Positions 5,269-56,694 of a stretch of DNA of 64,000 nt are shown here, one piece after another. Under the pieces are notes generated by a model. The model saw only the letters and a program-made list of their open reading frames with translations, was not told the DNA's origin and did not search any database. The stretch spans positions 946 to 64,945 of the forward strand of contig JAHCLE010000002.1 of NCBI GenBank assembly GCA_026125445.1, given 5' to 3'. This DNA comes from Burkholderiales bacterium. GTDB taxonomy: Bacteria; Pseudomonadota; Gammaproteobacteria; Burkholderiales; Usitatibacteraceae. Position 1 is the stretch's first letter, and each line of letters begins with the position of its first letter. The translations under genes were made by a program, and so were the position numbers.

Positions 5269-5282
5269 TTGACGCCGATCTA
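5269..5282. promoter_or_regulatory. FNR/CRP-family box-like site TTGAC-GCCG-ATCTA upstream of hoxF
   Basis: 9 of 10 half-site positions match TTGAC-N4-ATCAA. Centre is about 80-90 nt upstream of the candidate hoxF starts. Confidence 0.35.
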
Positions 5283-5314
5283 AAGGCCAGCGCAAAAACG
5301 CGGACGGAAGGCGG

Positions 5315-5399
5315 TGGTACCCGGGGCCGGGGTCGAACCGGCATGCCTCGCGGCTGCGGATTTTAAGTCCGCTGCGTCTACCAATTTCGCCACCCGGGC
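5315..5399 (-). tRNA. tRNA-Leu (anticodon UAA), CCA encoded
   Basis: Reverse complement GCCCGGGTGGCGAAATTGGTAGACGC..CTTAAAA..long variable arm..GGTTCGACCCCGGCCCCGGGTACCA. Cloverleaf readable, with a class II long variable arm. Confidence 0.9.
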
Positions 5400-5416
5400 G
5401 AAGGACCCGCGCCAGT

Positions 5417-6022
5417 CTACACCGGCGGGCGGGCGGCGCCCTCGGCCTGCTCGATGATGGCGAGCGCCACCTCGTCCACGGGCAGGCCAGAGGCCACGGC
5501 GCGGTCGTGCAGCATGCGCACGGCCACGTCGCAGTTGACCTTGTGCCGCTCGACGAGGATGCCGAGCGCGATGAGGGCCTGCGGGCCGTGGTCCCCGCCC
5601 AGGGCCTCCAAGAGGAGATCGGCTCCCCCGGCCGCTTTCGCGGGGGCCGCCGGGCGCTCCAGCGCGGCGCGTACCGCGGGCACGAGGCGCGACAGGTCCA
5701 CGGGCTTGGCGACCACGCCCACGGCGCCGAAGGAGGCGGCCTGGCGCCGCACCTCGGGCTCGTCGCGCGGGGGAGCGAGCAGCAGGAAGGGCACGTGCGT
5801 CTCGTGCGCGAGGAACCGCGCCACCTCCAGGCCGCTGCCCTCCGCCATGGTGACGTCGAGGATCGCGAGCGCCGGGCGGGTGTCGACGGCAACCCGCATG
5901 GCCTCGTCGGCGTTGGTGGCCACGACCACGTCGAAGCCCGCGCGCGAAAGCCCGGAAAGCAGCGTGGACAGGACGACGCGGTCGTCGTCCACGACCAGGA
6001 GGCGGGGCCTTGCCTGCATCAT
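5417..6022 (-). CDS. response regulator with ANTAR RNA-binding output domain
   Basis: Receiver domain ('LVVDDD', phospho-acceptor in 'AILDVTM', 'VVAKP'). C-terminal ANTAR-like 'ALIALGILVERHKVNCDVAVRMLHDRAVASGLPVDEVA'. Confidence 0.85.
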   Translation of the reverse strand: MMQARPRLLVVDDDRVVLSTLLSGLSRAGFDVVVATNADEAMRVAVDTRPALAILDVTMAEGSGLEVARFLAHETHVPFLLLAPPRDEPEVRRQAASFGAVGVVAKPVDLSRLVPAVRAALERPAAPAKAAGGADLLLEALGGDHGPQALIALGILVERHKVNCDVAVRMLHDRAVASGLPVDEVALAIIEQAEGAARPPV

Positions 6023-6045
6023 GGTAGCCTCATGCTGTCTCGATT

Positions 6046-6438
6046 ATGCCGGACCCCCGACCGGGTCCGGGGACCGCCTTGAACGCCCTTCGACTGCTGC
6101 CCGTGGTGCTCGCCTTCGGCGTCCTCGCCGCCCACTTCTACCGCGCCTACGCGTGGGTGCCGTTCGGCATCACGATCGGGCTGCTGCCCCTGCTCTTCGT
6201 GCGCGCCCCCTGGGCCGCGCGCGTGCTGCAGGGGGCGCTCCTCCTGGGCGCGCTGGAGTGGCTGCGCACCGCGGCGGTCCTCATCGCGATGCGCCAGTCC
6301 ATGGGCCAGCCCTGGACGCGGCTCGCCGTCATCCTCGGCGTCGTGGCGCTGGCCACGGCGGGCTGTGCCCTGCTCTTCCAGTGGCGGCCGGTACGGGAGC
6401 GCTTCGCGATGGGCAAGGCGGATCATCCCGGCTCCTAG
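6046..6438 (+). CDS. hypothetical small integral membrane protein (about 4 TM segments)
   Basis: 130 aa hydrophobic ORF with normal composition, divergent from the ANTAR regulator. No family recognised. Confidence 0.5.
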   Translation: MPDPRPGPGTALNALRLLPVVLAFGVLAAHFYRAYAWVPFGITIGLLPLLFVRAPWAARVLQGALLLGALEWLRTAAVLIAMRQSMGQPWTRLAVILGVVALATAGCALLFQWRPVRERFAMGKADHPGS

Positions 6439-7913
6439 CGCACCTGGCCGTAGAGGCACACGCGGTTGCGGCCGGAGCGCTTGGCGTCGTAGAGGGCGTC
6501 GTCGGCCTGGCTCATGAGCGTGTCGAGGTTCGCGTTGCCGGCGAGCGTGGCCACGCCGAGCGAGACGGTCACCCGCAGCGGGACGCCCTCCTCGCGCGCC
6601 ACCTCGGAGGCTTCCACCGCGGCGCGCAGCCGCTCGGCCACCTCCACCGCGCCCTCGATCGCCGTCTCCGGCAGCAGGATGGCGAATTCCTCGCCCCCCA
6701 CGCGCCCCACGACGTCGACGGCCCGCAGCACCTCGAGGCAGGTGCGGGCGAGCTGCTGCAGGACGCGGTCGCCGGCGCGGTGGCCGTGGGTGTCGTTCAC
6801 TTCCTTGAAGCGGTCGATGTCGAGCATCAGGATCGAGAGCGGCGTCTCGTAGCGCCGGCTGCGCGCGAGCTCCGCGTCGGCGACCTCGAAGAAGTGCCGC
6901 CGGTTGGCCAGTCCCGTGAGCGGGTCGGTGTGCGCCTGCGTCTCGAGGATGTGGGCGATGCGCCGCTGCCGGCGCCAGGCGCGGTCCACCATGAGGGTGG
7001 CGCCGATGGCCACGGCGAAGAGCACGCTCGAGAGCACGGCCACCACGCCCATGTCGCGGCGCCAGTGCCCCATGTACTCGGCCGTGGCGCGCCCCACGGT
7101 CACGTGCAGGGGGTAGCCCGTCACCTTGCGGTACGAGTAGAGACGGTCGGTCCCGTCCACCGGCGACACGTCGTGGAAGGTTCCCGAGATCTCGCCGCGC
7201 GAGACCAGTTCGCGCAGGCCGGCCGGCACCTCGTAGGCCTGTCCGCGTTCCGGGAACGGGGGATGGCGCGCGATGAGGCCGAGGTCCTCGCCGCGCACGC
7301 TCACCGCCCCGGTGGGGCCCACGTCGGCCGCCGCGAGCATCGTCACCAGGCGCTCCACCGGAACGGGCGCGACCACCGCGCCGGCGAATCTCCCGTCCGG
7401 GTACTCGTAGCGGCGCGCGACGTCCACGACCCAGGGGCCGTCGGGACTGTCGCGGTGCGCCTCCGAGATCGCGAGCCCGGAGAAGTGCCCGTCGCGCAGC
7501 TTGCGGAAATAGGGGTGGTTCTCGATTCCCGGGGCCGGGGCGTCGGCGAATTCGCTCTGGAGGATCGGGTGGCCGGCGGCGTCGGTGACCCGGATCGCGA
7601 GGACGTCCGGCAGGTTGGCGTGGATGGCGGCGATGTAGGCGCGCGCGGCCTGCTCGTCCGTTCCCCGTCCCGCGAGGCGCCGCTCCTGCTCCGTGGCCAC
7701 CGTGTGGATGGCGAGCCGCACCTTGTCCACCAGGTTGCCGATGTCGCTCTCGAGGACGCGCGCGACGCTGTAGGTCTCGACGACCGCCTGCTCCTCGTGC
7801 TGCTGCCGGCTGGTGTAGATCGACTGGCCGATGAGGATGGCGATGAGAAGCAGCAACGAGGCCACCACGCGCCACAGGCGCGTGACGAAGCGGCCCGCGT
7901 GAAGCTGTTCCAA
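6435..7913 (-). CDS. diguanylate cyclase with N-terminal TM and Cache-like periplasmic sensor
   Basis: 492 aa. 'RAVDVVGRVGGEEFAILL' gives an active-site GGEEF plus an RxxD I-site. Large extracytoplasmic region lies between two TM segments. Confidence 0.85.
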   Translation of the reverse strand: MEQLHAGRFVTRLWRVVASLLLLIAILIGQSIYTSRQQHEEQAVVETYSVARVLESDIGNLVDKVRLAIHTVATEQERRLAGRGTDEQAARAYIAAIHANLPDVLAIRVTDAAGHPILQSEFADAPAPGIENHPYFRKLRDGHFSGLAISEAHRDSPDGPWVVDVARRYEYPDGRFAGAVVAPVPVERLVTMLAAADVGPTGAVSVRGEDLGLIARHPPFPERGQAYEVPAGLRELVSRGEISGTFHDVSPVDGTDRLYSYRKVTGYPLHVTVGRATAEYMGHWRRDMGVVAVLSSVLFAVAIGATLMVDRAWRRQRRIAHILETQAHTDPLTGLANRRHFFEVADAELARSRRYETPLSILMLDIDRFKEVNDTHGHRAGDRVLQQLARTCLEVLRAVDVVGRVGGEEFAILLPETAIEGAVEVAERLRAAVEASEVAREEGVPLRVTVSLGVATLAGNANLDTLMSQADDALYDAKRSGRNRVCLYGQVR

Positions 7914-7987
7914 GTGCGCCTCCTCCTCGGCCCATCCTGCGCCCCTCCCCGGCCGGGGAATTGTCGGGCGTCAGGAACCGGCGCGAT

Positions 7988-8380
7988 TCAGTAGCACTGC
8001 GCGCGGCACAGCCGGGCGATGTCGGCGTCCGTGAGCGGCCCGCCGTCCCAGGAACGGGCGTCGGACGGGAGGTAGCAGGAACACATCCGCACCACCTCGC
8101 GGCCGCCGGGAGCGAGCGGAACGCTGCGCCACCGGCTCTCCGAGGGCGTGCCGTAGGTGTTGGCCCAGGGGTTCTGGTCCCTCGCGTCCCACGTCCGCGG
8201 TCCCCGGGAGGCGGGCTCGACGTAGCGCGGCGGGCGGGAAACCATGTCGGTCCAGTAGGACGACGGGCGGTCGTAGCGCAGCTGCTCGCCCAGCCAGGCG
8301 TTCCCGTAGTAGTCGGCGCAGGCCGTTCCCGCGCCGCAGAGGGCGCCCAGGAAGGCGATGGTGGCGAACGCGAGCTTCAT
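7988..8380 (-). CDS. hypothetical secreted Cys-containing protein
   Basis: 130 aa with signal peptide MKLAFATIAFLGALCGAGTACA and C-terminal cysteines (CSC...C..C). No family recognised. Confidence 0.5.
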   Translation of the reverse strand: MKLAFATIAFLGALCGAGTACADYYGNAWLGEQLRYDRPSSYWTDMVSRPPRYVEPASRGPRTWDARDQNPWANTYGTPSESRWRSVPLAPGGREVVRMCSCYLPSDARSWDGGPLTDADIARLCRAQCY

Positions 8381-8440
8381 TCCGGTCGTACCGTGCGCAA
8401 TGACCCAGAGCCCATGCTACCCCCGCGCGGGCCGCGAATC

Positions 8441-8456
8441 TGTGGCCTGCGTCACA
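8441..8456. promoter_or_regulatory. CRP-like box TGTGG-CCTGCG-TCACA
   Basis: 9 of 10 match to TGTGA-N6-TCACA, about 68 nt upstream of the ATG at 8380. Confidence 0.35.
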
Positions 8457-8458
8457 GG

Positions 8459-8482
8459 AAAAGGGCGCCCGCGGGCGCCCTT
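8459..8482 (-). terminator. Rho-independent terminator of hsp20
   Basis: Perfect 22-nt palindrome AAGGGCGCCCGCGGGCGCCCTT. On the minus strand the GC stem is followed by TTTT. Lies 24 nt after the hsp20 stop. Confidence 0.6.
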
Positions 8483-8505
8483 CCGGGCCCGGCGGCCGGG
8501 TCGCC

Positions 8506-8946
8506 TCAGTGGACCTCGACCCGGTGCGCCGCGGAGCCCTTCGCCTTCGGCAGCGTGAGCCGCAGCACGCCCTCGGCGTACTTCGCCTCCGCCTTTGCGA
8601 ACTCGACCTCGGTCGGCAGCGTGAACGAACGCGTCATCGCCCCGTAGTAGCGCTCGCTGCGAAGGACCTTGCCTTCCTTCTCGTCCTTCTTCTCGCGGCG
8701 CACCTCGGCGGAGATCGTGACCCGGTTGCCGTCGACGTCCACGCGGATGTCGTCCTTCGTCACGCCCGGCATGTCGGCCTTCACCATGAACTTGTCGGCA
8801 GCCTCTTCGACGTCCAGCCTGATGACGGGAGCCATGCTCTCCGTTTCCATCCACATCGGCGGAAGCAGGCCCTTGAAAACGGAGGGTACGTCGAACGCCG
8901 GATCGAAGAGGGTGAGGGGCTTGAGGGTTCCCATGGCATCCTCCAT
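8506..8946 (-). CDS. small heat-shock protein, Hsp20/alpha-crystallin family
   Basis: 'DMPGVTKDDIRVDVDGNRVTISAE...GAMTRSFTLP...A.YAEGVLRLTLPK' alpha-crystallin domain. Start ATG 8946 or 8934. Confidence 0.85.
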   Translation of the reverse strand: MEDAMGTLKPLTLFDPAFDVPSVFKGLLPPMWMETESMAPVIRLDVEEAADKFMVKADMPGVTKDDIRVDVDGNRVTISAEVRREKKDEKEGKVLRSERYYGAMTRSFTLPTEVEFAKAEAKYAEGVLRLTLPKAKGSAAHRVEVH

Positions 8947-9046
8947 CGCGATTCCTGGCCGCGGCGGCGTCAGCACCACCGCCGCACGGGGCGCCATCGC
9001 ATCCCGCCCCGCAGCGATAGCCTAGGACGGCCGCGCGCGGGGCGTG

Positions 9047-9060
9047 TTGCCGGGAGTCAA
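9047..9060. promoter_or_regulatory. FNR/CRP-family box-like site TTGCC-GGGA-GTCAA upstream of hsp20
   Basis: 9 of 10 match to TTGAC-N4-GTCAA. Overlaps the stop codon of the ACP-like gene, about 107 nt upstream of the hsp20 start. Confidence 0.3.
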
Positions 9061-9311
9061 GAATCCTGCGGATTTCGTGCCACGACGTAGGCGGCGATCT
9101 GGTCGAGCGTGGCGAGCGTGGCGTAGTCGGACTCGGCGATCTCGACCTTGAAGCGCTGGTGGACGGCGATGAGGAAGTTGAGCCAGTCCATGGAGTCGAG
9201 GTCGACCTGGTCGCGCAGCAGCTTGTCGGGGGCCACGTCGCCCTCCTCCAGCTCGGGGGCGATCTTGCGCAGCTCCTGGAAGAGGAGCGGGACGAGTTCC
9301 TTCGCGTTCAT
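9057..9311 (-). CDS. acyl/peptidyl carrier protein-like (phosphopantetheine-binding) protein
   Basis: 84 aa. 'DQVDLDSMDWLNFLIAV' matches the DSL/DSM phosphopantetheine attachment motif and its helix II context. ATGA overlap with the E2 stop. Confidence 0.75.
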   Translation of the reverse strand: MNAKELVPLLFQELRKIAPELEEGDVAPDKLLRDQVDLDSMDWLNFLIAVHQRFKVEIAESDYATLATLDQIAAYVVARNPQDS

Positions 9312-10420
9312 AGTTTTTCCGGCTCCTGGAGTCGGCGGGAGAGCTCGGCGAGGAAGGCGGCGCCGCGGTGGCCGTCGCTCACGCGGTGGTCCGCCGAAAG
9401 GGTCGCGACGACCACGGGCCGCGCGACCACGGCCCCCTCCTCCACCCACGGCCGCAGGGCGATCCTGCCGAGGCCGACGATCGCCACCTGCGGGGGATAG
9501 ATGACGGGATAGGTCGCCTCGACGCCGGTGTCGCCGAGGTTGGTGATCGTGATGGTGGGATCGGAAAACTCGGAGCTGCGCAGGCTCCCCGCCCGCGCGC
9601 GCTTCACGAGGTCGGCGAGCTTCGCCATCAGGTCGTCGATGGCGAGGTCCTGCACGTCGCGGATGCCGGGCGCCACCAGTCCCCCCTGGCGCAGCGAGAT
9701 GGCCACGCCCGTGTTCACCGAGGCGGAAGGCTGGTAGGCGCCGTCGCGCCAGGTGCCGTTCAGCTCCGGGAAGCCGCGCAGGGCGAGCGCCACCGCCTTG
9801 AGCTGCACGGCGGCCATGAGGATGCGCCCGGTGAGCGGGCGGCGGGCGTTCTCGGCAGAGAGCCAGTCCTGCGCCCGCTGCATCGGGATGGACTCCGCGA
9901 GGTAGTAGTGCGGGATCTCGCGCTTGGAGCGGCTCATGGCGGCGGCGATGGACTTGCGCATCTCGGCCCCGCGGTCGACGGGGGCCGCGGCCGGCACCGC
10001 CTTCGTCGCCCTCTCGACGTCCTCGATCGTCACGGCGCCGTGCGGCCCGGTGCCCGGGATGCCCTCGGGGTCGATGCCCAGCTCGCGCGCCCGGCGGCGG
10101 GCCGCGGGAGACACGGGCCGGCGTTCGCCCGCGACGGGAGGACCGGGCGGCAGCGGGACCGCGGGCGCCGCGCCGGGCTTCTCGCCCGGGGCGAGGAAGC
10201 GCGCGATCGTGGTGCCCACCGGGATCGTCGTGCCCGGCTCGACGAGGAGCGACTCCACCACGCCTTCCTGCCAGGTCTCGACCTCGACCGCGGCCTTCGT
10301 GGTGTCCACGACCGCCACCACGTCGCCCTTCCTCACCGCGTCCCCGGGCTTCACCTTCCACTCGAGGAGCTTGCCCTCGTCCATGTCGGCGCCGAGGGAC
10401 GGGAGCTTGAACTCGATCAT
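9308..10420 (-). CDS. 2-oxo acid / acetoin dehydrogenase E2 (dihydrolipoamide acyltransferase)
   Basis: 370 aa. N-terminal lipoyl domain ('[12 protein letters not shown]'), E3/E1-binding domain ('[28 protein letters not shown]') and catalytic 'DHRVSDG'. Confidence 0.9.
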
Positions 10421-11382
10421 TGGAAGAGGCCCCTCGCGGCCGCCACGATCTTCTCGGGTTGCGGCAGGGCCGCCTCCTCGAGGTGCTTCGGGTACGGGAT
10501 GGGCACTTCCTCGCGGCAGACGCGAGCCACCGGGGCGTCGAGGTCGTAGAAGGCCTGCTCCATGATGCGGGCCACGATCTCGGCCGAGAGGCTGCCGCTC
10601 CTCCAGCCCTCGTCCACGATCACCGCGCGCCGCGTCTTGCGGACCGAGGCGAGCACGGTGTCCATGTCCAGGGGCCGCAGGACGCGCAGGTCCACGACCT
10701 CGGCGTTGATCCCCTCCGCGGCGAGCTTCTCCGCCGCCGAGAGCGCCTTGGGCACGCAGCCGCCGTAGGCCACGATCGTCACGCGCGTGCCCTGGCGGCG
10801 CACGGCCGCGTGGGCGATGTCGACCGGGGTGCTGGACAGGTCGCCCGCGGTCTCGAAGAGCGCCGGATACTCGAAGACGAGCACGGGGTTGTCCTCGGCG
10901 AGCGCCGCGCCCAGCATGCCGTGCGCATCGTCGATGGTGGCGGGCGCCACGATCTTGAGTCCCGGCACGTGCGCGTACCAGCCCTCGAAGCTGTGAGAGT
11001 GCTGGGCCGCGAGCTGGCGCCCGGCGCCCGTGGCCATGCGGATGACGAGCGGGACGGCGAACTGGCCTCCCGACATGTGGCGCAGGATCGCGGCGGTGTT
11101 CACGATCTGGTCGAGCGGCAGCAGGCTGAAGTTCACCGTCATCACCTCGACGATGGGCTTCATTCCCCCCAGGGCGGCGCCGATGCCGGCGCCCACGAAG
11201 GCGAGCTCGGAGAGCGGCGCGTCGCGCACGCGCTCGGGCCCGAACTCCTCCAGCAGCCCCTTGCTCACGGCGTAGGTGCCGCCGTAGCGGCCCACGTCCT
11301 CGCCCACCAGGAAGACGCGCGGGTCGCCCGCCAGCGCCTCGCGCAACCCCTGTCTCAATGCCTCGCGGTAGGTGATCGTCAT
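10417..11382 (-). CDS. 2-oxo acid / acetoin dehydrogenase E1 beta subunit
   Basis: 321 aa from the ATG at 11382. Typical '[20 protein letters not shown]...RVRDAPLSE' transketolase-Pyr domain. ATGA overlaps at both ends. Confidence 0.9.
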
Positions 11383-12377
11383 GGCGCGTACACGTCCTTC
11401 GTGAGGTCCTCGACCGGCTCCCAGTCCCCGGCCTCGGCGAAGGCGACGGCGCGCTCGACCTCCGCGGCCACCTGGGAGTCGATGTCGAGGAAGCGCTCCT
11501 CGGTGAGGTGGCCCTGCTCCTTGAGGCGCGCGGTGAAGGTGTGGATGGGCCCGCGCTTCTTCCACTCCTCGACCTCGGCCTTTTCGCGGTAGAGCTCTGG
11601 GTCGAACATCGAGTGGGCGCGGAAGCGGTAGGTGCGGAACTCCACGAAGACGGGCCCGCCGCCGGCCATCACGCGCTCGCGCGCGCGCCGCGCCCCCTCG
11701 TAGCAGGCCACCACGTCCATCCCGTCCACGGCGAAGGCTTCGATGCCGTAGGAGGCCGCCTTCACGGCGAGGTCCGTCTGCGACTCCGAGCGCTCGATGG
11801 CCGTGCCCATCGCATAGAGGTTGTTCTCGCAGAAGAAGGCGACCGGCAGCTTCCAGAGCGCCGCGAGGTTCACGGACTCGTGGAAGGCGCCCTCGGCCAT
11901 CGCGCCCTCGCCGAAGAAGCAGGCGGTGAGCCGCTCCTCGCCGCGCAGCTTCGCGGCCAGGGCGAATCCCACGGCGAGCGGAAGCCCTCCACCGACGATG
12001 GCATTGCCCCCGTAGAAGCGCGCGTGCGCGTCGAAGAGGTGCATGGAGCCGCCGCGGCCGCGCGAGCAGCCCTCCTTCTTGCCGAACATCTCGGCCATGA
12101 TGCGTTCCATGGGAACGCCCTTGAGGAGCGCGTGCCCGTGCTCCCGGTAGGTGGCCACCACGTTGTCGCCGCGCGCGAGCGCGTGCATCGCGCCCGTGGC
12201 CACCGCCTCCTCGCCGATGTACAGGTGCAGGAAGCCGCGGATCTTCGCCGCGCCGTAGAGCTCGGCGCACTTCTCCTCCATGCGCCGGATGCGCAGCATG
12301 TCCTTCAGGAGTTTCAGGGAATTCTCGCGCGCGAACGGAACGGGCCCGGAAGGCGGCGCGCTGGCGGCGTGGCTCAT
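11379..12377 (-). CDS. 2-oxo acid / acetoin dehydrogenase E1 alpha subunit (ThDP-binding)
   Basis: 332 aa from the ATG at 12377. ThDP motif '[38 protein letters not shown]', with GEG in place of the usual GDG. Confidence 0.9.
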
Positions 12378-14080
12378 GATCCTCCCTCCAGGGTGGAGAG
12401 GTCTCCCTCGGGCAGGCCCAGCTCGCGCGCCTTGAGCAGCCTGCGCATGATCTTGCCGCTCCTCGTGCGCGGCAGCGTCGTGGCGAACGCGATCTCCTTG
12501 GGCGCGATGGCGGCCCCCAGGCGCTTCCTCACGTGGCCCAGGATCTCCATGCGCAGCGCCTCGTCCGGGACGAACCCGGTCTTTAGCGAGACGAAGGCCT
12601 TCACGATCTCGCCCACCACCGGGTCGGGCTTGCCGATGACGCCCGCCTCGGCCACGGCGCGGTGCTCCATGAGCACGCTCTCGACCTCGAAGGGGCCGAT
12701 GAGGTGGCCGGCGGACTTGATCACGTCGTCGGCGCGGCCCACGAACCAGAAGTAGCCGTCGGCGTCGCGGCGCGCGAGGTCGCCCGTGAGGTACCAGCCG
12801 TCGACGAAGCACTTGCGGTAGCGCTCGTCCTGGTCGAGGTAGCCGCGGAACATCGAGGGCCAGCCCGGGCGCAGCGCGAGCTCGCCCTCGGTGCCGGGGG
12901 CGGCCACGATCTCCAGGCCGTCGTCCTTTCGGTGCACGATAGCCGCCTCCACGCCCGGCAGGGGCTTGCCCATGGAGCCGGGCTTCACGTCCATGGCGGC
13001 GGTGTTGGCGATCATGATCCCGCCGGTCTCCGTCTGCCACCAGTTGTCGTGGATCGGCATGCCGAACGCGTCCATCCCCCACCACACGGCCTCGGGGTTG
13101 AGCGGCTCGCCCACGCTCGCCACGAAGCGAAGCCGCGGGAAGGCGTGCGTTCGCGCGAGCTCGGCCCCGGCCTTCATGAGCATGCGGATCGCCGTGGGCG
13201 CCGTGTACCAGACGCTCACCCGCTCCTCCTCGAGGATGCGGTACCAGCGCTCGGCGTCGAAGTCGGCCTCGTCCACGATGCTGGTCACGCCGTGCACCAG
13301 GGGCGTCACGATGCCGTAGGAGGTGCCGGTGACCCAGCCGGGATCGGCCGTGCACCAGAACACGTCGTCCGGGTGAAGGTCGAGCGCGACCTTGCCGGTG
13401 GCGCAGTGCATCACCACGGCGCCGTGCACGTGCACCGCCCCCTTGGGCATGCCCGTCGTGCCGCTCGTGAAGTGCAGGAAGGAGGTGTCCTCGGCCGTCG
13501 TGGCCGCCACTTCGCATTGCGGCGAGGCCGCGGCGAATTGCGCGCGGAAGTCTGCCGAGTCCACGCGCAGCACGTTCGCGAGCGTGGGCATCGGCACCGC
13601 GATCTTCGCCACCTTCTTCTGGTAGAGCGCCTCGGTGGTCACGAGCACCTTGCCGCGGCCCATGGCGATGCGCGTGGCGATGGGCTCGGGCCCGAAGGCC
13701 GAGAAGAGCGGCGAGACGGCCGCCCCCAGCTTGAGCGCGCCCAGCACCGCGAAGTAGAGCTCCGGCACTCGCCCGCACAGCACGAAGACGACGTCGCCCC
13801 TGCCCACGCCCAGCCCGCGCAGCAGGTTGGCGAAGCGGCTCGAGGACTCGTCGAGCTCGCGGTAGGTGATAGGGCGAACCTCGCCCGTGGCCGGGTGCCA
13901 GCGGATGGCGACGCGATCGGCGAGCGCGCCGCGCGCGTGCCTCGCGACCGCCTCCCACGCGATGTTCAGGCCTCCGCCGGGCAGCCCGTCGAGGAGCCGG
14001 CGCGCCTCGTCCCAGCCCATCGCGGGGTTTGGGGGCGCCGGCAGCGCCGCGAGATCCTTGTGGATGACGGCCGGTCTCAT
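12374..14080 (-). CDS. AMP-forming acetyl-CoA synthetase family ligase (short AcsA-like form)
   Basis: 568 aa from the ATG at 14080 (AAGGAG RBS). '[10 protein letters not shown]', 'WWQTETGG' and C-terminal 'SGKIMRR' adenylate-forming motifs. Confidence 0.85.
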
Positions 14081-14129: not shown

Positions 14130-14143
14130 GTGGACGAGTCCAC
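14130..14143. promoter_or_regulatory. perfect palindrome GTGGAC-GA-GTCCAC in the acs/ppdK divergent region
   Basis: 6-bp arms with a 2-nt spacer. Candidate operator; no matching regulator identified. Confidence 0.3.
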
Positions 14144-14167
14144 TGTAGGAGCGCCCGCGCCGGCACC

Positions 14168-14183
14168 GTTGACCCCGGTCAAC
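14168..14183. promoter_or_regulatory. FNR/CRP-family box GTTGAC-CCCG-GTCAAC
   Basis: Perfect TTGAC-N4-GTCAA inverted repeat with the FixK/FNR core TTGA-N6-TCAA. About 77 nt from the ppdK ATG and about 95 nt from the ligase ATG. Confidence 0.5.
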
Positions 14184-14252
14184 AGGGCTGCCGATGCCGG
14201 GCGCCACACTGGTCTGCAACCACCGCCGCACGTCGGCCATAAGGTCAATGCC

Positions 14253-17003
14253 ATGACATCCCGCACCGCCAGGAAAGCTCGCGCGCCGCAGCCCCGCCGC
14301 GCCGCGACCGAGAAGTGGGTCTACCTGTTCTCCGAAGGCAACGCGCGCCGCAAGGACCTCCTCGGCGGCAAGGGCGCGAACCTCGCCGAGATGACGCGCA
14401 TGGGCCTTCCGGTCCCGCCGGGATTCATCGTGAGCACGCGCGCGTGCAACGCCTACCTCGCCGCCGGCGGCTTCCCCGCCGGCATGTGGGCGCAGGTCGA
14501 GCGGGCGCTCGCCAAGGTCGAGCGCCTGGCCGGCAAGCGACTGGGCGACGCCGCGAACCCGCTCCTCGTCTCGTGCCGCTCCGGCGCGCGATTCTCGATG
14601 CCGGGGATGATGGACACGGTCCTCAACATCGGCATGAACGACGCCGTGGCCGCCGGCATCGCGAAGCTCACCGGCGACGAGCGCTTCGTGAACGACGCCT
14701 ACCGGCGCCTGGTGCAGATGTTCGGCACCGTGGTGCTGAACCTCCCGGACGAGCCCTTCGAGGAGGTGCTCGCGCGCGCGCGGAAGGCCCACGGCGTGGC
14801 GAACGACGCCGACCTGGGCGCGGCCACGCTGCTGGAGGTGACCGCGGAATTCAAGCGCATCGTGAAGGCGCGCGCGAAGCGCCCGTTCCCGGACGATCCG
14901 CTCGAGCAGCTGAAGCTCGCGACGGAGGCGGTCTTCAGGTCGTGGAACGGCAAGCGCGCCATCGACTACCGCAACGCCGCGGGCATCGCGCACGACCTGG
15001 GCACGGCGGTCAACATCCAGACCATGGTCTTCGGCAACATGGGCGCGGGCTCGGGCACGGGCGTGCTCACCACCCGCAACGTCACCACGGGCGAGGCGCG
15101 CCTCGAGGGCGACTGGCTTTCCAACGCGCAGGGCGAGGACGTGGTGGCCGGCACGCGCGCCACCCGCCGGATCGAGGAGCTCAAGGGCGAGATGCCGCGC
15201 ATCCACGCCGAGCTCGCGCGCCACTGCCGCACCCTGGAACGGCACTTCCGCGAGGTGCAGGACGTCGAGTTCACCATCGAGCGCGGCAGGCTCTGGATGC
15301 TGCAGACGCGCGACGCCAAGCGCACGGCGCAGGCCGCGGTGAGGATCGCCGTCGATCTCGCCGGCGAGAAGCTCATCACCCGCGACGAGGCGGTCATGCG
15401 CGTCTCGCCCGACCACGTGGACGCCTTCCTGCACCCGCAGTTCGACCCGCGCGAGAAGACGGCGGCGAAGAAGCGAGGCGACCTGCTCGCCTCGGGGCTG
15501 AACGTCTCGCCGGGCGCGGCGAGCGGCATCCTCGCCTTCGACGCCGACACCGCCGAGCAGTGGGGCGCCCGCGACGGCAAGGCCGTGATCATGGTTCGCC
15601 CCGAGACCAAGCCCGACGACGTGCACGGCATGCTCGCCGCCAGGGGGATCCTCACCAGCCGCGGGGGACGCACCAGCCACGCGGCGCTCGTGGCGCGCCA
15701 GTTCGGCAAGCCCGCCGTCGTCGGCGTGTCCGCGATGGAGGTCGACGCCGAGGCGCGGACCTTTACGATCGACGGCCGCCTCTTCCGCGAGGGCGACGCG
15801 GTCTCCATCGACGGCACCACGGGCGAGGTGTTCGCCGGGAGCCTGAAGACGGTGGTGCCCGAGTTCACCGACCCCTACCTCGCGAAGCTGCTGGGCTGGG
15901 CCGACGGCTTCCGCCGCCTGGGGGTCTGGGCCAACGCCGACTACCCGCGCGATGCCGAGAGAGCCCGCGGCTACGGGGCGCAGGGCATCGGCCTGTGCCG
16001 CACGGAGCACATGTTCTTCGAGACCGAGCGCCTGCCGCTGGTGCAGCAGATGATCCTCGCCACGACCGACGCCGAGCGCGAGGGGCCGCTCGCGAAGCTC
16101 CTGCCCTTCCAGAGGAGCGACTTCGTCGGGCTCTTCCGCGCCATGGACGGCCTGCCGGTCACCATCCGTCTCATCGACCCGCCGCTGCACGAGTTCCTGC
16201 CGGCGCACGACGAGCTCCTGCGCGACGTGACCGAGATGCAGACGCGGGCGACGCTGGCCCCCGGGGGCGACCCGCTGGGCCTCGCCGGCACGCTCGAGCA
16301 GAAGAAGCGCCTGCTGGCGGCCGTGGAGGCGATGCGCGAGGCGAACCCCATGCTGGGGCTTCGCGGCGTGCGCCTGGGCATCCACCTGCCGCAGCTCGTG
16401 CGCATGCAGGTGCGCGCCATCGTAGAGGCCGCCTGCCGCTGCAAGCGCGAGGGCGTCAAGGTGAAGCCCAAGATCATGATCCCCCTCACCGCGCACAACA
16501 ACGAGCTCAAGGTCGAGGAGGCGATCCTCGAGGCCGAGGCGCGCGCGGTGATGAAGGAGCAAGGCGTGCGCGTGGACTACCAGTTCGGCACGATGATCGA
16601 GATCCCGCGCGCGGCGCTCACCGCCGGCGAGATCGCCCGCTACGCCCAGTTCTTCTCCTTCGGCACCAACGACCTCACCCAGACCACCTTCGGCATCTCG
16701 CGAGACGACGCCGAGACCGGCTTCCTGCAGGAGTACCTCGAGCGCCGCATCCTGCCCGAGAACCCCTTCGCGACCCTGGACCAGGCCGGCGTGGGCAAGC
16801 TCATGGAGATGGGCGTGCGGCTGGGGCGCGAGGTGCGCCCCGACCTGGAGGTGGGCATCTGCGGCGAGCACGGCGGCGACCCGGCGACCATCCGCTTCTG
16901 CCACCGCATCGGGCTGGACTACGTGAGCTGCTCGCCCTACCGCGTGCCCGTGGCGCGGCTTGCCGCCGCCCAGGCGGCCCTGGCCGACGCCGGCCGGCGT
17001 TAG
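14253..17003 (+). CDS. ppdK: pyruvate, phosphate dikinase
   Basis: 916 aa. '[10 protein letters not shown]' ATP-grasp N-terminus, catalytic His in '[18 protein letters not shown]', and PEP-utilising TIM domain '[11 protein letters not shown]'. Confidence 0.95.
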
Positions 17004-42450: not shown

Positions 42451-42451
42451 C

Positions 42452-50188: not shown

Positions 50189-50200
50189 GCGGAGGGCGCG

Positions 50201-51898: not shown

Positions 51899-51901
51899 CC
51901 G

Positions 51902-53518
51902 ATGGCGCCGGCGCACGACTACATCGTGGTGGGCGCGGGATCGGCCGGCGCGGCGCTGGCCGCGCGGCTTTCGGAGTCGGGCCGCTTCCGCGTGCTGCTC
52001 GTCGAGGCCGGCGGCCCGGATTCCAACCCGTGGATCCACGTCCCCCTGGGCGTGGGCAAGCTCCTCACGAACGATCGCCTCGCCTGGAGGTTCGAGACCG
52101 AACCGCAGCCGGAGCTCAAGGGGCAGCGGGTCTACTGGCCGCGCGGCAAGGTGCTGGGCGGCTCGAGCGCCCTGAACGGCATGGCCTACGTGTGGGGCGA
52201 CCCGCGCGAGTTCGACCGCTGGCGCGAGGCGGGCCTCGCAGGATGGGGCTGGTCCGACGTGGCGCCCTACTTCGCGCGCCTGGAGAACAACCCGTTCGCG
52301 AGCCTTCCGGGGCGCGGCCATTCCGGGCCCCTTCGCATCACCGACCGCGCCGCGCGCGACCGCGACGCGCTCTCCGACGGCTTCGTGGCGGCCTGCCGCG
52401 ACGCGGGCATCGCCGACACCCCGGACTACAACGCGGGGAGCTACGAGGGAGTGCGCTACCTGGAACAGACGGCGCACGCCGGCCGTCGCTGGAGCACGGC
52501 CACCGCCTACCTGCGCGAGGCCCGGCGGCGCCCGAACCTGCGCATCGAGACGGGCGCCGTCGTCTCGCGCGTGCTCTTCGAGGGCGGTCGCGCGGTCGGC
52601 GTCGAGATCCTCCAGGGGAGCGCCCGCCGCGAGGAGCGGGCCGCGCGCGAGGTGATCCTGTGCGCGGGCGCCATCCAGTCGCCGCAGCTGCTGGAGCTCT
52701 CCGGCGTCGGGGACGCGGCGCGCCTGCAGGCGCTGGGAATCCCGGTGGTGGCGCACCGCCCCGCGGTGGGCGAGAACCTCATCGACCACCTGCAGCTTCG
52801 CTGCACCTACGAGACGCGCCTGCCGATCACCATCAACGACGTGATGCGAAGCCCCTGGCGGCGGCTCGCGGTCGGGCTGCAGTACCTGCTCACGCGGCGC
52901 GGCCTCATGGCCGGCACCTCCTCGACGGCGCACGCGATCACCCGAACCTCGGCGCAGCGGGACCGGCCCGACGTGATGATCCGCATCTACCACATCAGCG
53001 GCAAGGACCGTTACTCGCGCTCGCCCGGCGCGGGCATCGACCCCTTCTCCGGCTTCTCGCTGGGCGGCTTCCAGCTGCACCCGGCCTCGCGCGGCTCCAT
53101 CCACGCCCGCTCGCGCGACCCGCTCGAGCACCCGCGCATCGAGCCCAACTACTTCGCCGCCGAGGACGACCGGCGCACGGGGGTCGCGATGCTGCGTCTC
53201 ATCCGCCGCGTGGCCGCGCAGCCCGCGATCGCCTCGCTCATCGTGCGCGAGACGCGCCCCGGCCCCGAGGTCGAGGACGACGAGGCCCTGCTCGACTACG
53301 CGCGCGGCTGCGGCCAGACCGCCTGGCACACGGTGGGCACGTGCCGCATGGGCCCTGAGGCCGACTCTGTGGTGGACGCGCGGCTGCGCGTGCACGGCGT
53401 TCAGGGCCTGCGGGTGGCCGACGCCTCCGTGATGCCCACGATCCCCTCGTCAAACACCAACGCGCCGGCCATCATGATCGGCGAGAAGGCCTCCGACCTC
53501 GTCCTCGCCGACGCCTAG
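51902..53518 (+). CDS. GMC family (choline dehydrogenase-like) FAD oxidoreductase
   Basis: 538 aa. 'DYIVVGAGSAGAALAARLSE', 'GKVLGGSSALNGM' and C-terminal 'HTVGTCRMG' / 'LRVADASVMP' motifs. Confidence 0.9.
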   Translation: MAPAHDYIVVGAGSAGAALAARLSESGRFRVLLVEAGGPDSNPWIHVPLGVGKLLTNDRLAWRFETEPQPELKGQRVYWPRGKVLGGSSALNGMAYVWGDPREFDRWREAGLAGWGWSDVAPYFARLENNPFASLPGRGHSGPLRITDRAARDRDALSDGFVAACRDAGIADTPDYNAGSYEGVRYLEQTAHAGRRWSTATAYLREARRRPNLRIETGAVVSRVLFEGGRAVGVEILQGSARREERAAREVILCAGAIQSPQLLELSGVGDAARLQALGIPVVAHRPAVGENLIDHLQLRCTYETRLPITINDVMRSPWRRLAVGLQYLLTRRGLMAGTSSTAHAITRTSAQRDRPDVMIRIYHISGKDRYSRSPGAGIDPFSGFSLGGFQLHPASRGSIHARSRDPLEHPRIEPNYFAAEDDRRTGVAMLRLIRRVAAQPAIASLIVRETRPGPEVEDDEALLDYARGCGQTAWHTVGTCRMGPEADSVVDARLRVHGVQGLRVADASVMPTIPSSNTNAPAIMIGEKASDLVLADA

Positions 53519-54534
53519 GCGTGCAGCTCCACGACGTCGCCATCGGCGACGGCGTGCTCCGGCCCCACCTGCTGGCCGTCGTGCCCGGACTTGCCCCACA
53601 GGCGGGCGTAGCGAAGCGAGTGCTCGAGGTCGCGGTGGATGAGGCGCGCGACGTCGGCCACGGTCTGGCCGCGGCGAAGCGCGTAGGGACGCGACTTGTC
53701 GGGGGCGTGGCCCGGCGCCTTCGTGTACACGCGCACGATGCCGAGGTGGGCGAACAGCCACGGCCCCAGTTCTCCCAGGCCCCTTCCCGTCAGCGCCGAG
53801 ACGACCATCGCCGGAAAGCGAAGCCCCGAGAGATCGAGGAACGCGCGCAGCTCGCCTTCGGGGTCGGCGAGGCGGTCGGCCTTGTTGGCCAGCAACAGCG
53901 CCGGCAGGCGGATGGCGAAGGGATCGTCGGCCGCCGCTTCGCTGCCGTCTTCGCCTCCAGGCCAGCGCGCGGCGAGCGTCACCCGCTTCTTCGCGAGGAT
54001 CTCCGCGATGGCGCGAACCTGCTCCAGACAATCCGGCTCCGCGAGGTCGAGGACGAGGATCGCGGCGTCCGCGCCCTGCAGCGTGGCGGCGAGCCAGGGC
54101 ACCGCGTGCTCCGGCGAGACGGCGGGCAGGTCCACGAGCTGGAAGGCGATGTCCTCGTGCGGCATCATCCCCGGCTCCGGAAACTGGGTGGTGAAGGGAT
54201 AGTCGGCCACCCCCGCGTGCGAGCCGGTGAGCCGAACGTGCAGCGACGACTTGCCCGCGTTAGGAGGCCCGATGAGCGCGACCTGCGCCGCCCCCTCGGG
54301 CCGCACCACGAGCGAAGGTCCCCCGCGCGCCCCGCCCTTGTGCGCGCCGCCCTCGAGCTCCTCGCCCAGGTCCTTGATGCGCGCCTTGATGTCGGCCTGC
54401 AGGTGCTCGGTGCCCTTGTGCTTGGGGATCGTGCGAAGCATCTCGCGCAGGCACTCGAGGCGCTCGCGCGGGTCGCGCGCCTCGCGGAAGGCGGCCTCGG
54501 CGGACTTGTACTCGGGGGAGAGGTTGGCGGGCAT
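53515..54534 (-). CDS. DRG-family (developmentally regulated GTP-binding protein-like) GTPase with C-terminal TGS domain
   Basis: 339 aa. G1 'GPPNAGKSS', G2 'YPFTT', G4 'NKAD', TGS region 'IVRVYTKAPGHAPD...YARLWGKS'. N-terminal helix 'PKHKGTEHLQADIKARIKDLGEEL' is as in DRG proteins. Confidence 0.8.
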   Translation of the reverse strand: MPANLSPEYKSAEAAFREARDPRERLECLREMLRTIPKHKGTEHLQADIKARIKDLGEELEGGAHKGGARGGPSLVVRPEGAAQVALIGPPNAGKSSLHVRLTGSHAGVADYPFTTQFPEPGMMPHEDIAFQLVDLPAVSPEHAVPWLAATLQGADAAILVLDLAEPDCLEQVRAIAEILAKKRVTLAARWPGGEDGSEAAADDPFAIRLPALLLANKADRLADPEGELRAFLDLSGLRFPAMVVSALTGRGLGELGPWLFAHLGIVRVYTKAPGHAPDKSRPYALRRGQTVADVARLIHRDLEHSLRYARLWGKSGHDGQQVGPEHAVADGDVVELHA

Positions 54535-54595
54535 GGCGTCGCTCGATCCTACCGGTCGGCCTTGCCGCCGTCGCGCCGGTCGCGGACCGGAAAAC

Positions 54596-54669
54596 TGGAG
54601 GCAGGGAGCGGAATCGAACCGCTGTACACGGCTTTGCAGGCCGCTGCATAACCACTCTGCCACCCCGCC
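54596..54669 (-). tRNA. tRNA-Cys (anticodon GCA), CCA encoded
   Basis: Reverse complement GGCGGGGTGGCAGAGTGGTTATGCAGCGGCCTGCAAAGCCGTGTACAGCGGTTCGATTCCGCTCCCTGCCTCCA. Confidence 0.9.
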
Positions 54670-54709
54670 CGGGGTGCCCGGCCGGGGACGGCCGGGGCCG
54701 AAACGCATC

Positions 54710-54732
54710 GGGGGGAGGATCGACCTCCCCCC
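54710..54732. repeat. hairpin GGGGGGAGG-atcga-CCTCCCCCC (left copy of a flanking hairpin pair)
   Basis: The stem sequence is identical to that of the hairpin at 59442-59468. Confidence 0.6.
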
Positions 54733-54752
54733 GAAGGGAATCTGGAAGGTGA

Positions 54753-54782
54753 ATTATACATCGCGCCGCCGGGTGCGAGGAA
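54753..54782 (-). promoter_or_regulatory. candidate sigma70 promoter for tRNA-Cys (TTCCTC-N18-TATAAT)
   Basis: Perfect TATAAT (minus strand, 54758-54753) in an otherwise GC-rich spacer, about 84 nt upstream of the mature tRNA 5' end. The -35 element is weak. Confidence 0.35.
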
Positions 54783-54838
54783 GCCGCGGCCCTGCCCCAA
54801 GGGCCAATGCCCCGAATTGCGCCAGATCAAGGCATTGC

Positions 54839-54854
54839 GTTGACTCCAGTCAAC
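54839..54854. promoter_or_regulatory. FNR/CRP-family box GTTGAC-TCCA-GTCAAC
   Basis: Perfect TTGAC-N4-GTCAA. TCAAAT lies where a class II -10 element would be expected. 86-113 nt upstream of the candidate starts of the phosphatase-like gene. Confidence 0.5.
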
Positions 54855-54959
54855 ATGGACAATGCGCGCGGCTGGTCAAATACGACATATAGGTATCAAC
54901 GGCTCGGCCCATCCGCTGCCGGGCAGTCTGCGATGGCCGGGCCCGATCAGAAGCGGGCC

Positions 54960-56651
54960 ATGCGCACCCTATATCGATTTGCGGTCGCCGCCTTGATGGC
55001 GATCATCCCTTCCCTCCCCGCGTTCGCGGCGGCGGAGACGGCTTCCCCGAATTACCAGGGCCTGTGGTGGAACTCCCCGCCGGAGTCGGAATCGGGCTGG
55101 GGCATCAACCTCGCGCACCAAGGCGACATAATCTTCGCCACCTGGTACACGTACGATGCGGACGGCAAGGGTTGGTGGCTGTCCATGACGGCCTACAAGA
55201 CCGCGGAACGGACCTACAGCGGCACGCTCATCGAGGCTTCCGGGCCGGCGTTCAGCGCCGTCCCCTTCAATCCCGACAGGGTGACCCGCAACGCCGTCGG
55301 CGTCGGCACCTTCGTGTTCCGCGATCTCGACAGCGGCACTTTCACCTACACGGTGAAGGGCGAGCAGCAGACGAAGTTCATCACGCGGATGGCGTACGGC
55401 CCGGTGCCTACCTGCACCGAGGGCACCCGGGCTGAGCTCGTGGCCGCGAAGAACTACCAGGATCTGTGGTGGGTCCCGGACGGGACGGAATCGGGGTGGG
55501 GGATCAACCTGGCGCATCAGGGTGACATCGTCTTCGCCACCTGGTACACCTATGGCGGCGACGGCAGGCCCCAGTGGCTTTCCGCGACGGCATTTCCGAT
55601 CGGACAGGGCATCTACAGCGGCCAGCTGATCCGGACCACCGGCCCGGCCTTCAAGGCATCGCCTTTCGATCCCGCGATGGTGACCCGCTCGGTCGTGGGC
55701 ACCGCGACCTTCACCTTCGCCAATGGCAATTCGGGTCAGTTCGAGTACACGCTGGACGGGGTGCATCAGGCCAAGGCGATCACGCGCCTCATGTTCAGCG
55801 CAACCACCGGGACGCGATGCGGCGAGCCCCATCGCAACGTGGCACCGGTCACGGTCGTGGCGGTGGGCGACATCGCCGAGTGCGGTGACAAGCCGGCAGG
55901 ACAGAGCGGCGCGGCCCGCACGGCGGAGCTCGTGCGCGACAGCGACAGCCTCATCCTGACGCTGGGCGACAACGCGTACCAGACCGGAACGCCCGACGAG
56001 TTCGCGAACTGCTACCACCCCACCTGGGGCCGCTTCAAGGACAGGACCCGCCCCACTCCCGGCAATCACGATTACTACACCACCGGCGCCGAGGGCTACT
56101 TCGACTATTTCGGCGACCGGGCAGGGCCGGACCGGCGGGGATACTACAGCTTCGACCACGGCAGCTGGCACTTCATCTCGCTCAACAGCATGGCCGACCT
56201 CTCGCCGCAGTCCGAGCAGTACCGCTGGCTCCTCGCCGACCTCGAGAAGTCGCGCGACAGCCTGTGCACCATCGCCGTCCTGCACTACCCTGCATTCAAT
56301 TCGGGCGCCGCACACGGCAGCAACGCGACTTCGAAGCAGGTCTTCGAAACGCTGCGCAACGCGGGCGTCGAATTGCTGCTTTCCGGGCACGAGCACGTCT
56401 ACGAGCGCTTCGGGCCACAGAAAGGCGACGGGACCTCGGACCCGGCTCGGGGCGTGCGCCAGTTCGTCGTCGGCACCGGCGGCGCGTCCCTCCACCAATT
56501 CAGCGCGACCCTTCCCCACAGCCAGTTCCGCCTCGCGACCAGTTGGGGAATCCTGCGCCTCGCGCTGGGCCATGGCAGCTACAGCTGGCAATTCGTGCCC
56601 GCAGGCGGCGGAACGCCCCTCGACGCGGGCAGCGCGAACTGCCACCGGTAG
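54960..56651 (+). CDS. secreted protein: signal peptide + two copies of an unassigned ~116-136 aa domain + purple-acid-phosphatase-like metallophosphoesterase domain
   Basis: Signal peptide MRTLYRFAVAALMAIIPSLPAFAAA. Phosphoesterase motifs 'GDIAECG', 'GDNAY', 'GNHDY' and 'GHEHVYER'. Alternative start at ATG 54933. Confidence 0.8.
   Translation: MRTLYRFAVAALMAIIPSLPAFAAAETASPNYQGLWWNSPPESESGWGINLAHQGDIIFATWYTYDADGKGWWLSMTAYKTAERTYSGTLIEASGPAFSAVPFNPDRVTRNAVGVGTFVFRDLDSGTFTYTVKGEQQTKFITRMAYGPVPTCTEGTRAELVAAKNYQDLWWVPDGTESGWGINLAHQGDIVFATWYTYGGDGRPQWLSATAFPIGQGIYSGQLIRTTGPAFKASPFDPAMVTRSVVGTATFTFANGNSGQFEYTLDGVHQAKAITRLMFSATTGTRCGEPHRNVAPVTVVAVGDIAECGDKPAGQSGAARTAELVRDSDSLILTLGDNAYQTGTPDEFANCYHPTWGRFKDRTRPTPGNHDYYTTGAEGYFDYFGDRAGPDRRGYYSFDHGSWHFISLNSMADLSPQSEQYRWLLADLEKSRDSLCTIAVLHYPAFNSGAAHGSNATSKQVFETLRNAGVELLLSGHEHVYERFGPQKGDGTSDPARGVRQFVVGTGGASLHQFSATLPHSQFRLATSWGILRLALGHGSYSWQFVPAGGGTPLDAGSANCHR
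55044..55799 (+). repeat. tandem intragenic domain repeat (copy 1 55044-55451, copy 2 55452-55799), paralogous to 56867-57619
   Basis: Both copies start NYQ(G/D)LWW..ESGWGINLAHQGD..F..W.TY. One run shared with 56867-57619 (tcggaatcgggctggggcatcaacctcgcgcacca) is identical at DNA level. Confidence 0.85.
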
Positions 56652-56678
56652 GACCTAGGTCGCCTCCTGCAGCACCCG

Positions 56679-56694
56679 CTTGACCCCCGTCAAC
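56679..56694. promoter_or_regulatory. FNR/CRP-family box cTTGAC-CCCC-GTCAAc
   Basis: Perfect TTGAC-N4-GTCAA, about 105 nt upstream of the ATG at 56792. Confidence 0.5.

Follow-up and report, generated by a model that had tools for sequence, protein, structure and literature searches.

The TTGAC-N4-GTCAA palindromes that precede several functionally unrelated operons in a 64-kb stretch of an uncultured betaproteobacterial genome are, as far as can be judged from sequence, very probably operators of an FNR-family transcription activator, namely an oxygen-sensing FNR acting from a class II position. The stretch, hereafter the window, covers positions 946-64945 of contig C112 in a 3.67-Mb assembly of 469 contigs (G000) and has a G+C content of 70-73%. 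A preliminary description of the window had proposed one FNR-type regulon joining these operons, and the proposal is supported by the enrichment of the motif, the content of the predicted target set, the promoter geometry, the conservation of the sites and the presence of FNR; each of the computational checks suggested there favoured it. Five boxes are considered in the window, listed here with their scores against a weight matrix built from the whole genome (see below); no strand is assigned to any of them.

5269-5282: weak FNR box TTGACGCCGATCTA (in gene orientation TAGATCGGCGTCAA), 8 of 10 positions, 14.3 bits, upstream of hoxF.
9047-9060: imperfect FNR box TTGCCGGGAGTCAA (in gene orientation TTGACTCCCGGCAA), 9 of 10 positions, 17.2 bits, upstream of hsp20.
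14169-14182: perfect FNR box TTGACCCCGGTCAA, 23.9 bits, the highest score genome-wide, common to the divergent promoters of ppdK and the ligase-E1-E2-carrier protein operon.
54840-54853: perfect FNR box TTGACTCCAGTCAA, 20.5 bits, upstream of a metallophosphoesterase gene.
56680-56693: perfect FNR box TTGACCCCCGTCAA, 23.3 bits, upstream of a CotH gene.

The perfect pattern (TTGACNNNNGTCAA) occurs at 14169, 54840 and 56680, as described before, against 0.00 occurrences expected from 100 dinucleotide-preserving shuffles of the window; the looser TTGA-N6-TCAA finds these same three sites and no other (0.10 expected). Relative to the genome as a whole, the excess of perfect boxes in the window is mild (three sites; Poisson P = 0.009). 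The other two sites had both been credited with nine of ten matching positions. This holds for 9047-9060, which has one mismatch, but not for 5269-5282, which has two. Since both sites carry mismatches (TCTA at 5269, TTGC at 9047), the TTGA-N6-TCAA core that had been ascribed to all five is confined to the three perfect ones. When up to two mismatches are allowed the window contains 12 matches, with 7.9 expected, so the 5269 and 9047 sites do not rise above chance by sequence alone; we retain them because they are conserved in relatives. Beyond the five sites, the window has no other credible one.

Across the genome, all assignments to intergenic or coding DNA derive from our own uncurated gene calls, for which a codon-usage model was trained on long open reading frames of high third-position G+C content (3,757 genes; 92% coding). 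The perfect palindrome is present in 24 copies, with ~0.6 expected from base composition, and every copy is intergenic; the reversed pattern, used as a control, does not occur. Copies with one mismatch are intergenic in 34 of 48 cases. The genome-wide matrix scan for intergenic enrichment suggested in the preliminary description was run with a matrix of 22 columns, iterated on intergenic sites, and again placed the motif overwhelmingly between genes: 63 of the 69 sites scoring at least 16 bits are intergenic. Fully intergenic sites number 56 at this threshold and 72 at 14 bits or more, compared with 1.1 and 3.3, respectively, in first-order-shuffled intergenic DNA. Versions of the palindrome with an N3 spacer, an N5 spacer or everted half-sites each have 0 occurrences in the whole genome.

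Position 5 of the half-site is C in 61 of 76 cases (80%), a modest excess over the 65% that the base composition of intergenic DNA predicts (P = 0.002). The T version, TTGAT-N4-ATCAA, is found once, whilst mixed C/T dyads are found 14 times, 13 of them intergenic. The consensus of the box is TTGAY-N4-RTCAA, with C preferred at position 5, and G000 contains 38 sites of this form. ACAnGG does follow all three perfect window sites on the right, as had been read from the sequence, but it is not a feature of the family: CAnGG is seen in 6 of 126 half-site flanks, the block is not conserved at the orthologous ppdK, CotH and phosphatase promoters, and the flank positions of the matrix carry at most 0.5 bit. 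A related palindrome, TTGAA-N4-TTCAA, has six genomic copies, five of them intergenic; it may represent a sub-class of FNR boxes, or else belong to another regulator.

The genes behind the window boxes, whose earlier names were confirmed by Pfam, are as follows.

577-5196, minus strand: hoxF-hoxU-hoxY-hoxH operon (NAD-linked bidirectional [NiFe] hydrogenase), predicted target.
8506-8979, minus strand: hsp20 (small heat-shock protein; Pfam HSP20, 3e-21), predicted target.
9057-14080, minus strand: operon of an acyl-CoA ligase, E1 alpha, E1 beta, E2 and a carrier protein (Pfam AMP-binding, E1_dh, Transket_pyr/Transketolase_C, 2-oxoacid_dh, PP-binding), predicted target.
14253-17003, plus strand: ppdK (pyruvate phosphate dikinase; Pfam PPDK_N, PEP-utilizers, PEP-utilizers_C), predicted target.
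54933-56651, plus strand: secreted metallophosphoesterase with a duplicated N-terminal domain (Pfam Metallophos), predicted target.
56786-59407, plus strand: secreted CotH-kinase-like protein (Pfam CotH, 3.7e-36), predicted target.

The hoxF product is a HoxF-like NuoE/NuoF fusion (Complex1_51K, 2Fe-2S_thioredx and NADH_4Fe-4S domains), and it is followed by HoxU- (Fer2_4, NADH-G_4Fe-4S_3), HoxY- and HoxH-type subunits; Oxidored_q6 and NiFeSe_Hases are the further Pfam matches of the operon. Outside the window, boxes stand at canonical targets: at ccoN (COX1; cbb3 oxidase subunit I; box at C96:590), at hemN (Radical_SAM and HemN_C domains) and at fnr itself, the hemN/fnr intergenic region carrying its box at C221:1650. 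They also precede nrdJ (class II ribonucleotide reductase), universal stress protein genes, nqrA, and genes for fumarate-reductase cytochrome b, an NrfA-like cytochrome c552, an NrfB-like multihaem cytochrome, the hydrogenase protease HycI, NosD, PPK2, a nitroreductase, formate-tetrahydrofolate ligase and two TrpB-like proteins. Such a target set is typical of FNR/Anr/FixK regulons. Regulons of this kind are well known, and among the members of the present one only the secreted CotH-kinase/phosphatase gene pair is unusual. At the level of promoters, the regulon is predicted to comprise roughly 55-60 members genome-wide.

Orthologous promoters were compared in 24 genomes of the same genus, G000 included, and the position of each of the five window sites is conserved. 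The number of perfect boxes per genome ranges from 3 to 27, with 0-2 for the control pattern; one genome of the same family has 29, and some other families of the order are enriched too. At ppdK a box lies 60-80 nt upstream in 18 of 18 close orthologous loci of the genus, with spacers that differ between orthologues (CCCCGG, CCTCAG, CCGCGA, CCCCGA) and free interchange of G and A at position 10. The box and a downstream block, gACACTGG, are the sole conserved islands of this promoter; the 22 nt between them vary. Upstream of hsp20, TTGAC-N4-GGCAA is found at 68-82 nt in 19/19 orthologues, again with free spacers and with a conserved TAnnnT, and the deviant half-site GGCAA is itself kept in all 19. 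The hoxF site forms an island, TAGAY-N4-RTCAA, in 18 of 18 orthologous loci, and a second island (GGGGTAGGGTGG, which holds the putative -10 element) lies at a fixed distance from it, the intervening sequence varying in the 18-genome alignment. The CotH/phosphatase pair is present in four other genomes, whose CotH orthologues have a box 98-108 nt upstream; seven of eight paralogue loci are boxed, six of them at -95 to -108 and one at -49.5. The orthologous phosphatase gene, too, has kept its box in other genomes of the genus.

Over the genome, boxes tend to be centred 50-100 nt 5' of predicted start codons, and in the window their centres stand 74.5-99.5 nt from them, close to the 77-113 nt given previously. 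Of 65 promoter-facing flanks, 14 have a hexamer of the form TAnnnT that begins at an offset of 29 from the dyad, and 22 have one beginning at 29-32; none of 28 control flanks, which face away from a gene, has one there. A peak in A+T content coincides with this offset. The corresponding elements of the window promoters are these.

5242-5247, minus strand: hox promoter, with TAGGGT as putative -10 hexamer; it begins 28.5 bp from the dyad.
9019-9024: hsp20 promoter, with TAGGCT as -10-like hexamer.
14142-14147, minus strand: ligase operon promoter, with TACAGT as putative -10 hexamer; it begins 28.5 bp from the ppdK/ligase dyad.
14205-14210, plus strand: ppdK promoter, with CACACT as putative -10 hexamer; it begins 29.5 bp from that dyad, on its other side.
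54876-54881: phosphatase promoter, with TCAAAT as -10-like hexamer.
56716-56721: CotH promoter, with CCGAAT as weak -10-like hexamer.

Because the -10-like hexamers start 28.5-29.5 bp from the dyad, the latter would be centred at about -40.5 to -41.5. The class II geometry at -41.5 that had been anticipated thus appears to fit, as judged by the spacing to hexamers which are themselves conserved in orthologues. On the ligase side of the ppdK dyad, TAnAGT or GATACT is found at 28.5 bp in the 13 genomes in which a ligase match adjoins ppdK; neither was seen at that offset in the five ppdK loci without a ligase match. As conserved hexamers flank this dyad on both sides, it appears to serve two divergent promoters. 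At the phosphatase promoter, a weak second box (TTGCGCCAGATCAA; 54817-54830; 10.8 bits) lies 23 bp upstream of the first, centre to centre.

A Pfam scan of the genome with HTH_Crp_2 gave seven matches, none on the contig of the window, in keeping with the earlier remark that the window has no fnr-like gene; FNR homologues, a search for which had been recommended, are present elsewhere in the genome. Three of the proteins have the E--SR recognition helix of FNR type.

C221:1704-2264, plus strand, and C195:2459-2635, minus strand: fnr, split by an assembly gap into pieces encoding the first 187 and the last 58 residues.
C17:2829-3635, minus strand: Cys-less FNR paralogue of 268 amino acids, with an LETVSR helix and none of the four Cys ligands.
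C116:1534-2142: second Cys-less paralogue, of 202 amino acids; ETLSR is C-terminal, and the gene has a box 22 nt 5' of its start.

The FNR itself is canonical and is predicted to sense oxygen. Its C221 fragment (PF00027 at C221:1836-2090) contains a C-X2-C-X5-C motif within TACSQCNLRELCLP and the cysteine of EVCVMPF (SEVCVMPF), which together supply the four Cys ligands, and its C195 fragment (PF13545 at C195:2489-2635) contains the LETVSR helix (ETVSR). An intact orthologue of 246 residues from the same genus (P0001) joins the two fragments exactly, with 96% and 91% identity to them and the same Cys residues. This orthologue scores 238.1 bits against the Fnr subfamily model NF008365 of NCBIfam (cut-off 228) and aligns over its full length with the solved chain 5cvr, an 'FNR type regulator' (E = 2e-54), where all four cysteines are matched (HCQDCSISQLCIP, SMVCEIPY). 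Between fnr and hemN, which are divergent, stands a box (TTGACAAGGATCAA); downstream of fnr come a further box and a universal stress protein gene. As fnr is split over their ends, C221 and C195 must adjoin each other in the real genome; the order inferred on this basis is hemN, fnr, the universal stress protein gene, a DksA-type zinc-finger gene and a CoA-binding/ADP-forming acyl-CoA synthetase gene, the last two being read from sequence.

Two more regulators have CRP-type RE--R helices (C163:2071-2763 and C458:2229-2882). The palindrome TGTGA-N6-TCACA has seven copies in the genome, all intergenic, which are probably the sites of these two proteins.

Among the 23 searched genomes other than G019 (G000 included), FNR is found in all with at least 91% identity (in pieces on separate contigs in G000 and G003), and each of these genomes has 5-27 perfect boxes. 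G019, a genome of the same genus that is 98% complete, is without FNR, its best match (35% identity) being the Cys-less paralogue. It has the fewest perfect boxes (3), and 7 sites of the form TTGAY-N4-RTCAA compared with 38 in G000; ppdK, hoxF and a close hsp20 orthologue are missing as well, so that it represents a natural 'FNR-minus' lineage within the genus. Several of its box loci are of atypical composition or have the box within coding sequence. The contrast is suggestive, and favours FNR over the paralogue as the main regulator.

Some observations weigh against assigning all the boxes to FNR. The contrast with G019 concerns one genome only, and G019 keeps boxes in its nrdJ/msrA intergenic region and near its cco region despite lacking FNR; because these are retained, the paralogue may read the same motif. 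Both the 268- and the 202-residue paralogues (C17:2829-3635 and C116:1534-2142) share the E--SR motif with FNR and may be capable of binding these boxes too. The hoxF and hsp20 boxes depart from the consensus at positions that are usually important for FNR binding. Since the matrix was trained on the same intergenic sites that it counts, site numbers between 14 and 16 bits are somewhat inflated, and since start codons come from our own gene caller, the distances from box to start are approximate. Four 'sites' of at least 14 bits reading TTGCCGCCGATCAA were rejected as operators; they are the ends of a dispersed repeat, have flanks that are identical over ~45 nt and consist of GCCGAT units, and are false positives of the matrix because the end of the repeat mimics the FNR box. 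This repeat (GGAAACGCCGATGAACGCCGATGCCCCGCCGATTGCCGCCGATCAA; ~45 nt) has at least four copies (C416:18399-18492, C257:24694-24787, C182:5-98 and C37:3139-3232).

The paralogues could enter the picture in two ways. In one, which we consider rather unlikely, the box family would be split among FNR, the Cys-less paralogue and the 202-residue protein; the deviant half-sites (GGCAA at hsp20, TAGAY at hoxF) would be paralogue-selective or tune affinity, and the CotH/metallophosphatase pair would have been recruited to the system, each gene with its own conserved box. If this were so, oxygen limitation would switch on extracellular protein phosphorylation. In the other, which is unlikely, the window boxes would be bound mainly by the Cys-less protein acting as a FixK- or Dnr-like regulator, and the signal would be a two-component cascade or nitric oxide (NO) rather than oxygen sensed directly. 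This protein has the LETVSR helix of FNR without the four Cys ligands. Among solved structures FNR is its best match and 4i2o the next-best distinct protein; for the FNR of this genome the ranking is the same. Its gene is the last regulator gene of an operon (C17:2829-7783, minus strand) which, with functions read from sequence, also encodes a metallo-β-lactamase (MBL)-fold protein, a PAS histidine kinase, a NarL-type response regulator and a CheY-like protein. Ahead of the operon stands a perfect box (C17:7832-7845), which 17 related loci have kept ~4.2 kb 5' of the regulator gene; this layout resembles a cascade running from FNR to a FixK/Dnr-type regulator. The operon has a multihaem cytochrome c gene as its divergent neighbour. 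Persistence of the paralogue together with a few boxes in G019, after the loss of FNR, also speaks for such a role, and the conserved deviant half-sites (GGCAA at hsp20, TAGAT at hoxF) could encode a preference of the paralogue. However, the abundance of boxes tracks FNR and not the paralogue, since G019 has the latter and yet the fewest boxes, without the ppdK, hoxF and close hsp20 orthologues; the paralogue lies far below the NCBIfam cut-offs for both FixK (NF050806; 70.2 against 300 bits) and FNR (129 against 228 bits); and no sequence feature sets paralogue sites apart from FNR sites.

A nitrosative-stress regulator of HcpR type is a highly unlikely owner of the motif. For the HcpR of delta-proteobacteria and cyanobacteria, Rodionov et al. 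(2005; PMC1274295) predicted wyTTGACnnnnGTCAArw, a consensus identical to the motif, but we reject this assignment because hcp (Pfam Prismane), the defining target of HcpR, was not found in the 91%-complete genome; moreover, the box-bearing genes are oxygen-regulon classics such as ccoN, hemN and fnr, and not genes of NO detoxification.

It is extremely improbable that the boxes belong to a regulator outside the CRP/FNR superfamily, such as a dormancy regulator of the DosR/NarL type with its similar GAC-N4-GTC core, or are back-to-back -35 hexamers of divergent promoters. The set of hsp20, universal stress proteins, nitroreductase, ppdK and hydrogenase recalls the mycobacterial DosR regulon, and the -35 consensus of sigma-70 begins with TTGAC; yet the DosR-type box GGGAC-N4-GTCCC is not enriched (five genome sites, three intergenic), whilst fnr, hemN and ccoN carry the FNR-type box, a content that points to FNR. 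Against the -35 reading, most boxes serve one gene direction and nevertheless have both half-sites conserved; in addition, the -10 hexamers start 21-22 bp past the 14-bp box, which would be an atypically long spacer for the proximal half-site as a -35 element, whereas the distance from dyad to hexamer is that of a class II activator.

The FNR assignment is consistent with the systems that are best understood. Escherichia coli FNR binds TTGAT-N4-ATCAA near -41.5 and has C20, C23, C29 and C122 as its Cys ligands. It shares with the system described here a 14-bp dyad with the TTGA-N6-TCAA core, four Cys in the same positions, the E--SR helix and a box at its own gene; the spacing of 28.5-29.5 bp between dyad and -10-like hexamer in the present genome is also that of E. 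coli class II promoters. Unlike in E. coli, position 5 is mostly C (61/76), with the one TTGAT-N4-ATCAA copy in the genome, and the predicted regulon takes in ppdK, the Hox hydrogenase, the CotH/phosphatase pair and PPK2. In Pseudomonas, anr adjoins hemN, as fnr does here. Boxes for Anr and Dnr in Pseudomonas aeruginosa are likewise found at genes for universal stress proteins, the cbb3-oxidase and ribonucleotide reductase, and that organism, too, combines an FNR-type protein with a Cys-less paralogue reading boxes of the same sort. The differences are that it belongs to another class and family of bacteria, and that the Cys-less paralogue of the present genome is encoded behind a PAS kinase and response-regulator operon. 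The Anr box of Pseudomonas is written TTGac-N4-gtCAA (PMC4974557), and the FnrL/Dnr sites of Dinoroseobacter have TTGAC half-sites at -39.5 to -41.5 (PMC5398030); because of these TTGAC half-sites, the C-rich variant of the box falls within the known specificity of the FNR family.

The FixLJ-FixK2 system of Bradyrhizobium (4i2o being a FixK2 structure) provides a precedent for the C17 locus, in that the gene of a Cys-less CRP/FNR regulator lies near those of a PAS histidine kinase and a response regulator, and TTGA-N6-TCAA boxes stand at ccoN (fixN)-type genes. It differs in that the paralogue described here reaches 70 bits where the FixK equivalog cut-off is 300, and in that a canonical FNR is also present and tracks the abundance of boxes.

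Taking the observed sites (their existence, enrichment, placement and conservation, and their geometry relative to the -10-like hexamers) together with the presence and features of FNR, we infer that FNR rather than a paralogue is the binder, that it activates rather than represses at each promoter, and that oxygen is the signal; any division of labour among the three E--SR paralogues is likewise a matter of inference. In the mechanism proposed, FNR would hold a [4Fe-4S] cluster at low oxygen, dimerise and bind the dyad, which would lie ~41 bp upstream of the transcription start in place of a -35 element; FNR bound there would recruit RNA polymerase, as in class II activation. Within the window the predicted outcome is co-induction of the NAD-linked Hox hydrogenase, hsp20, ppdK, the ligase/2-oxoacid-dehydrogenase-like operon and the secreted phosphatase and CotH genes. 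Of these, ppdK and the divergent ligase operon would be driven from one common box, and the phosphatase and CotH genes each from its own. This is textbook FNR action, with the possible exception of a single dyad midway between two conserved -10 elements, from which a pair of divergent promoters would be served; CRP has been described as activating divergent promoters from a common site.

The analysis yields a conserved FNR regulon map for an uncultured genus allied to the Usitatibacteraceae. The closest public records, whose regulator is 86-98% identical, are metagenome-assembled genomes labelled Betaproteobacteria, Burkholderiales or Usitatibacteraceae, and in two cases Lysobacter. Among the ten titles listed by a literature search on Usitatibacter, most are surveys of communities or describe species, and none deals with gene regulation. 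A facultatively anaerobic or micro-oxic lifestyle is predicted from the cbb3 oxidase, the multihaem cytochromes, the NrfA-like cytochrome c552, the bidirectional Hox hydrogenase, ppdK, formate-tetrahydrofolate ligase and PPK2. The secreted CotH-kinase/phosphatase pair and the ligase-E1-E2-carrier protein operon are flagged as likely oxygen-limitation genes, and hypotheses on their roles are thereby narrowed.

Transfer RNA (tRNA) genes in the window lie at 5318-5399 (minus strand), 54599-54669 and 59480-59552. With the first of these at 5318-5399, the hoxF box is just downstream of a tRNA gene, starting 36 nt past its 3' end (gap 5283-5317), and the tRNA-to-hoxF arrangement is kept in most genomes of the genus. 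Another tRNA gene stands between the phosphatase box and the GTPase gene upstream of it.

The phosphatase and CotH proteins have an N-terminal domain in common (~120-136 amino acids; 54960-55700 and 56860-57620 in the window). This domain is greatly expanded in the genus, with between 2 and at least 25 matches per genome, in open frames of ~130 to >1,200 amino acids.

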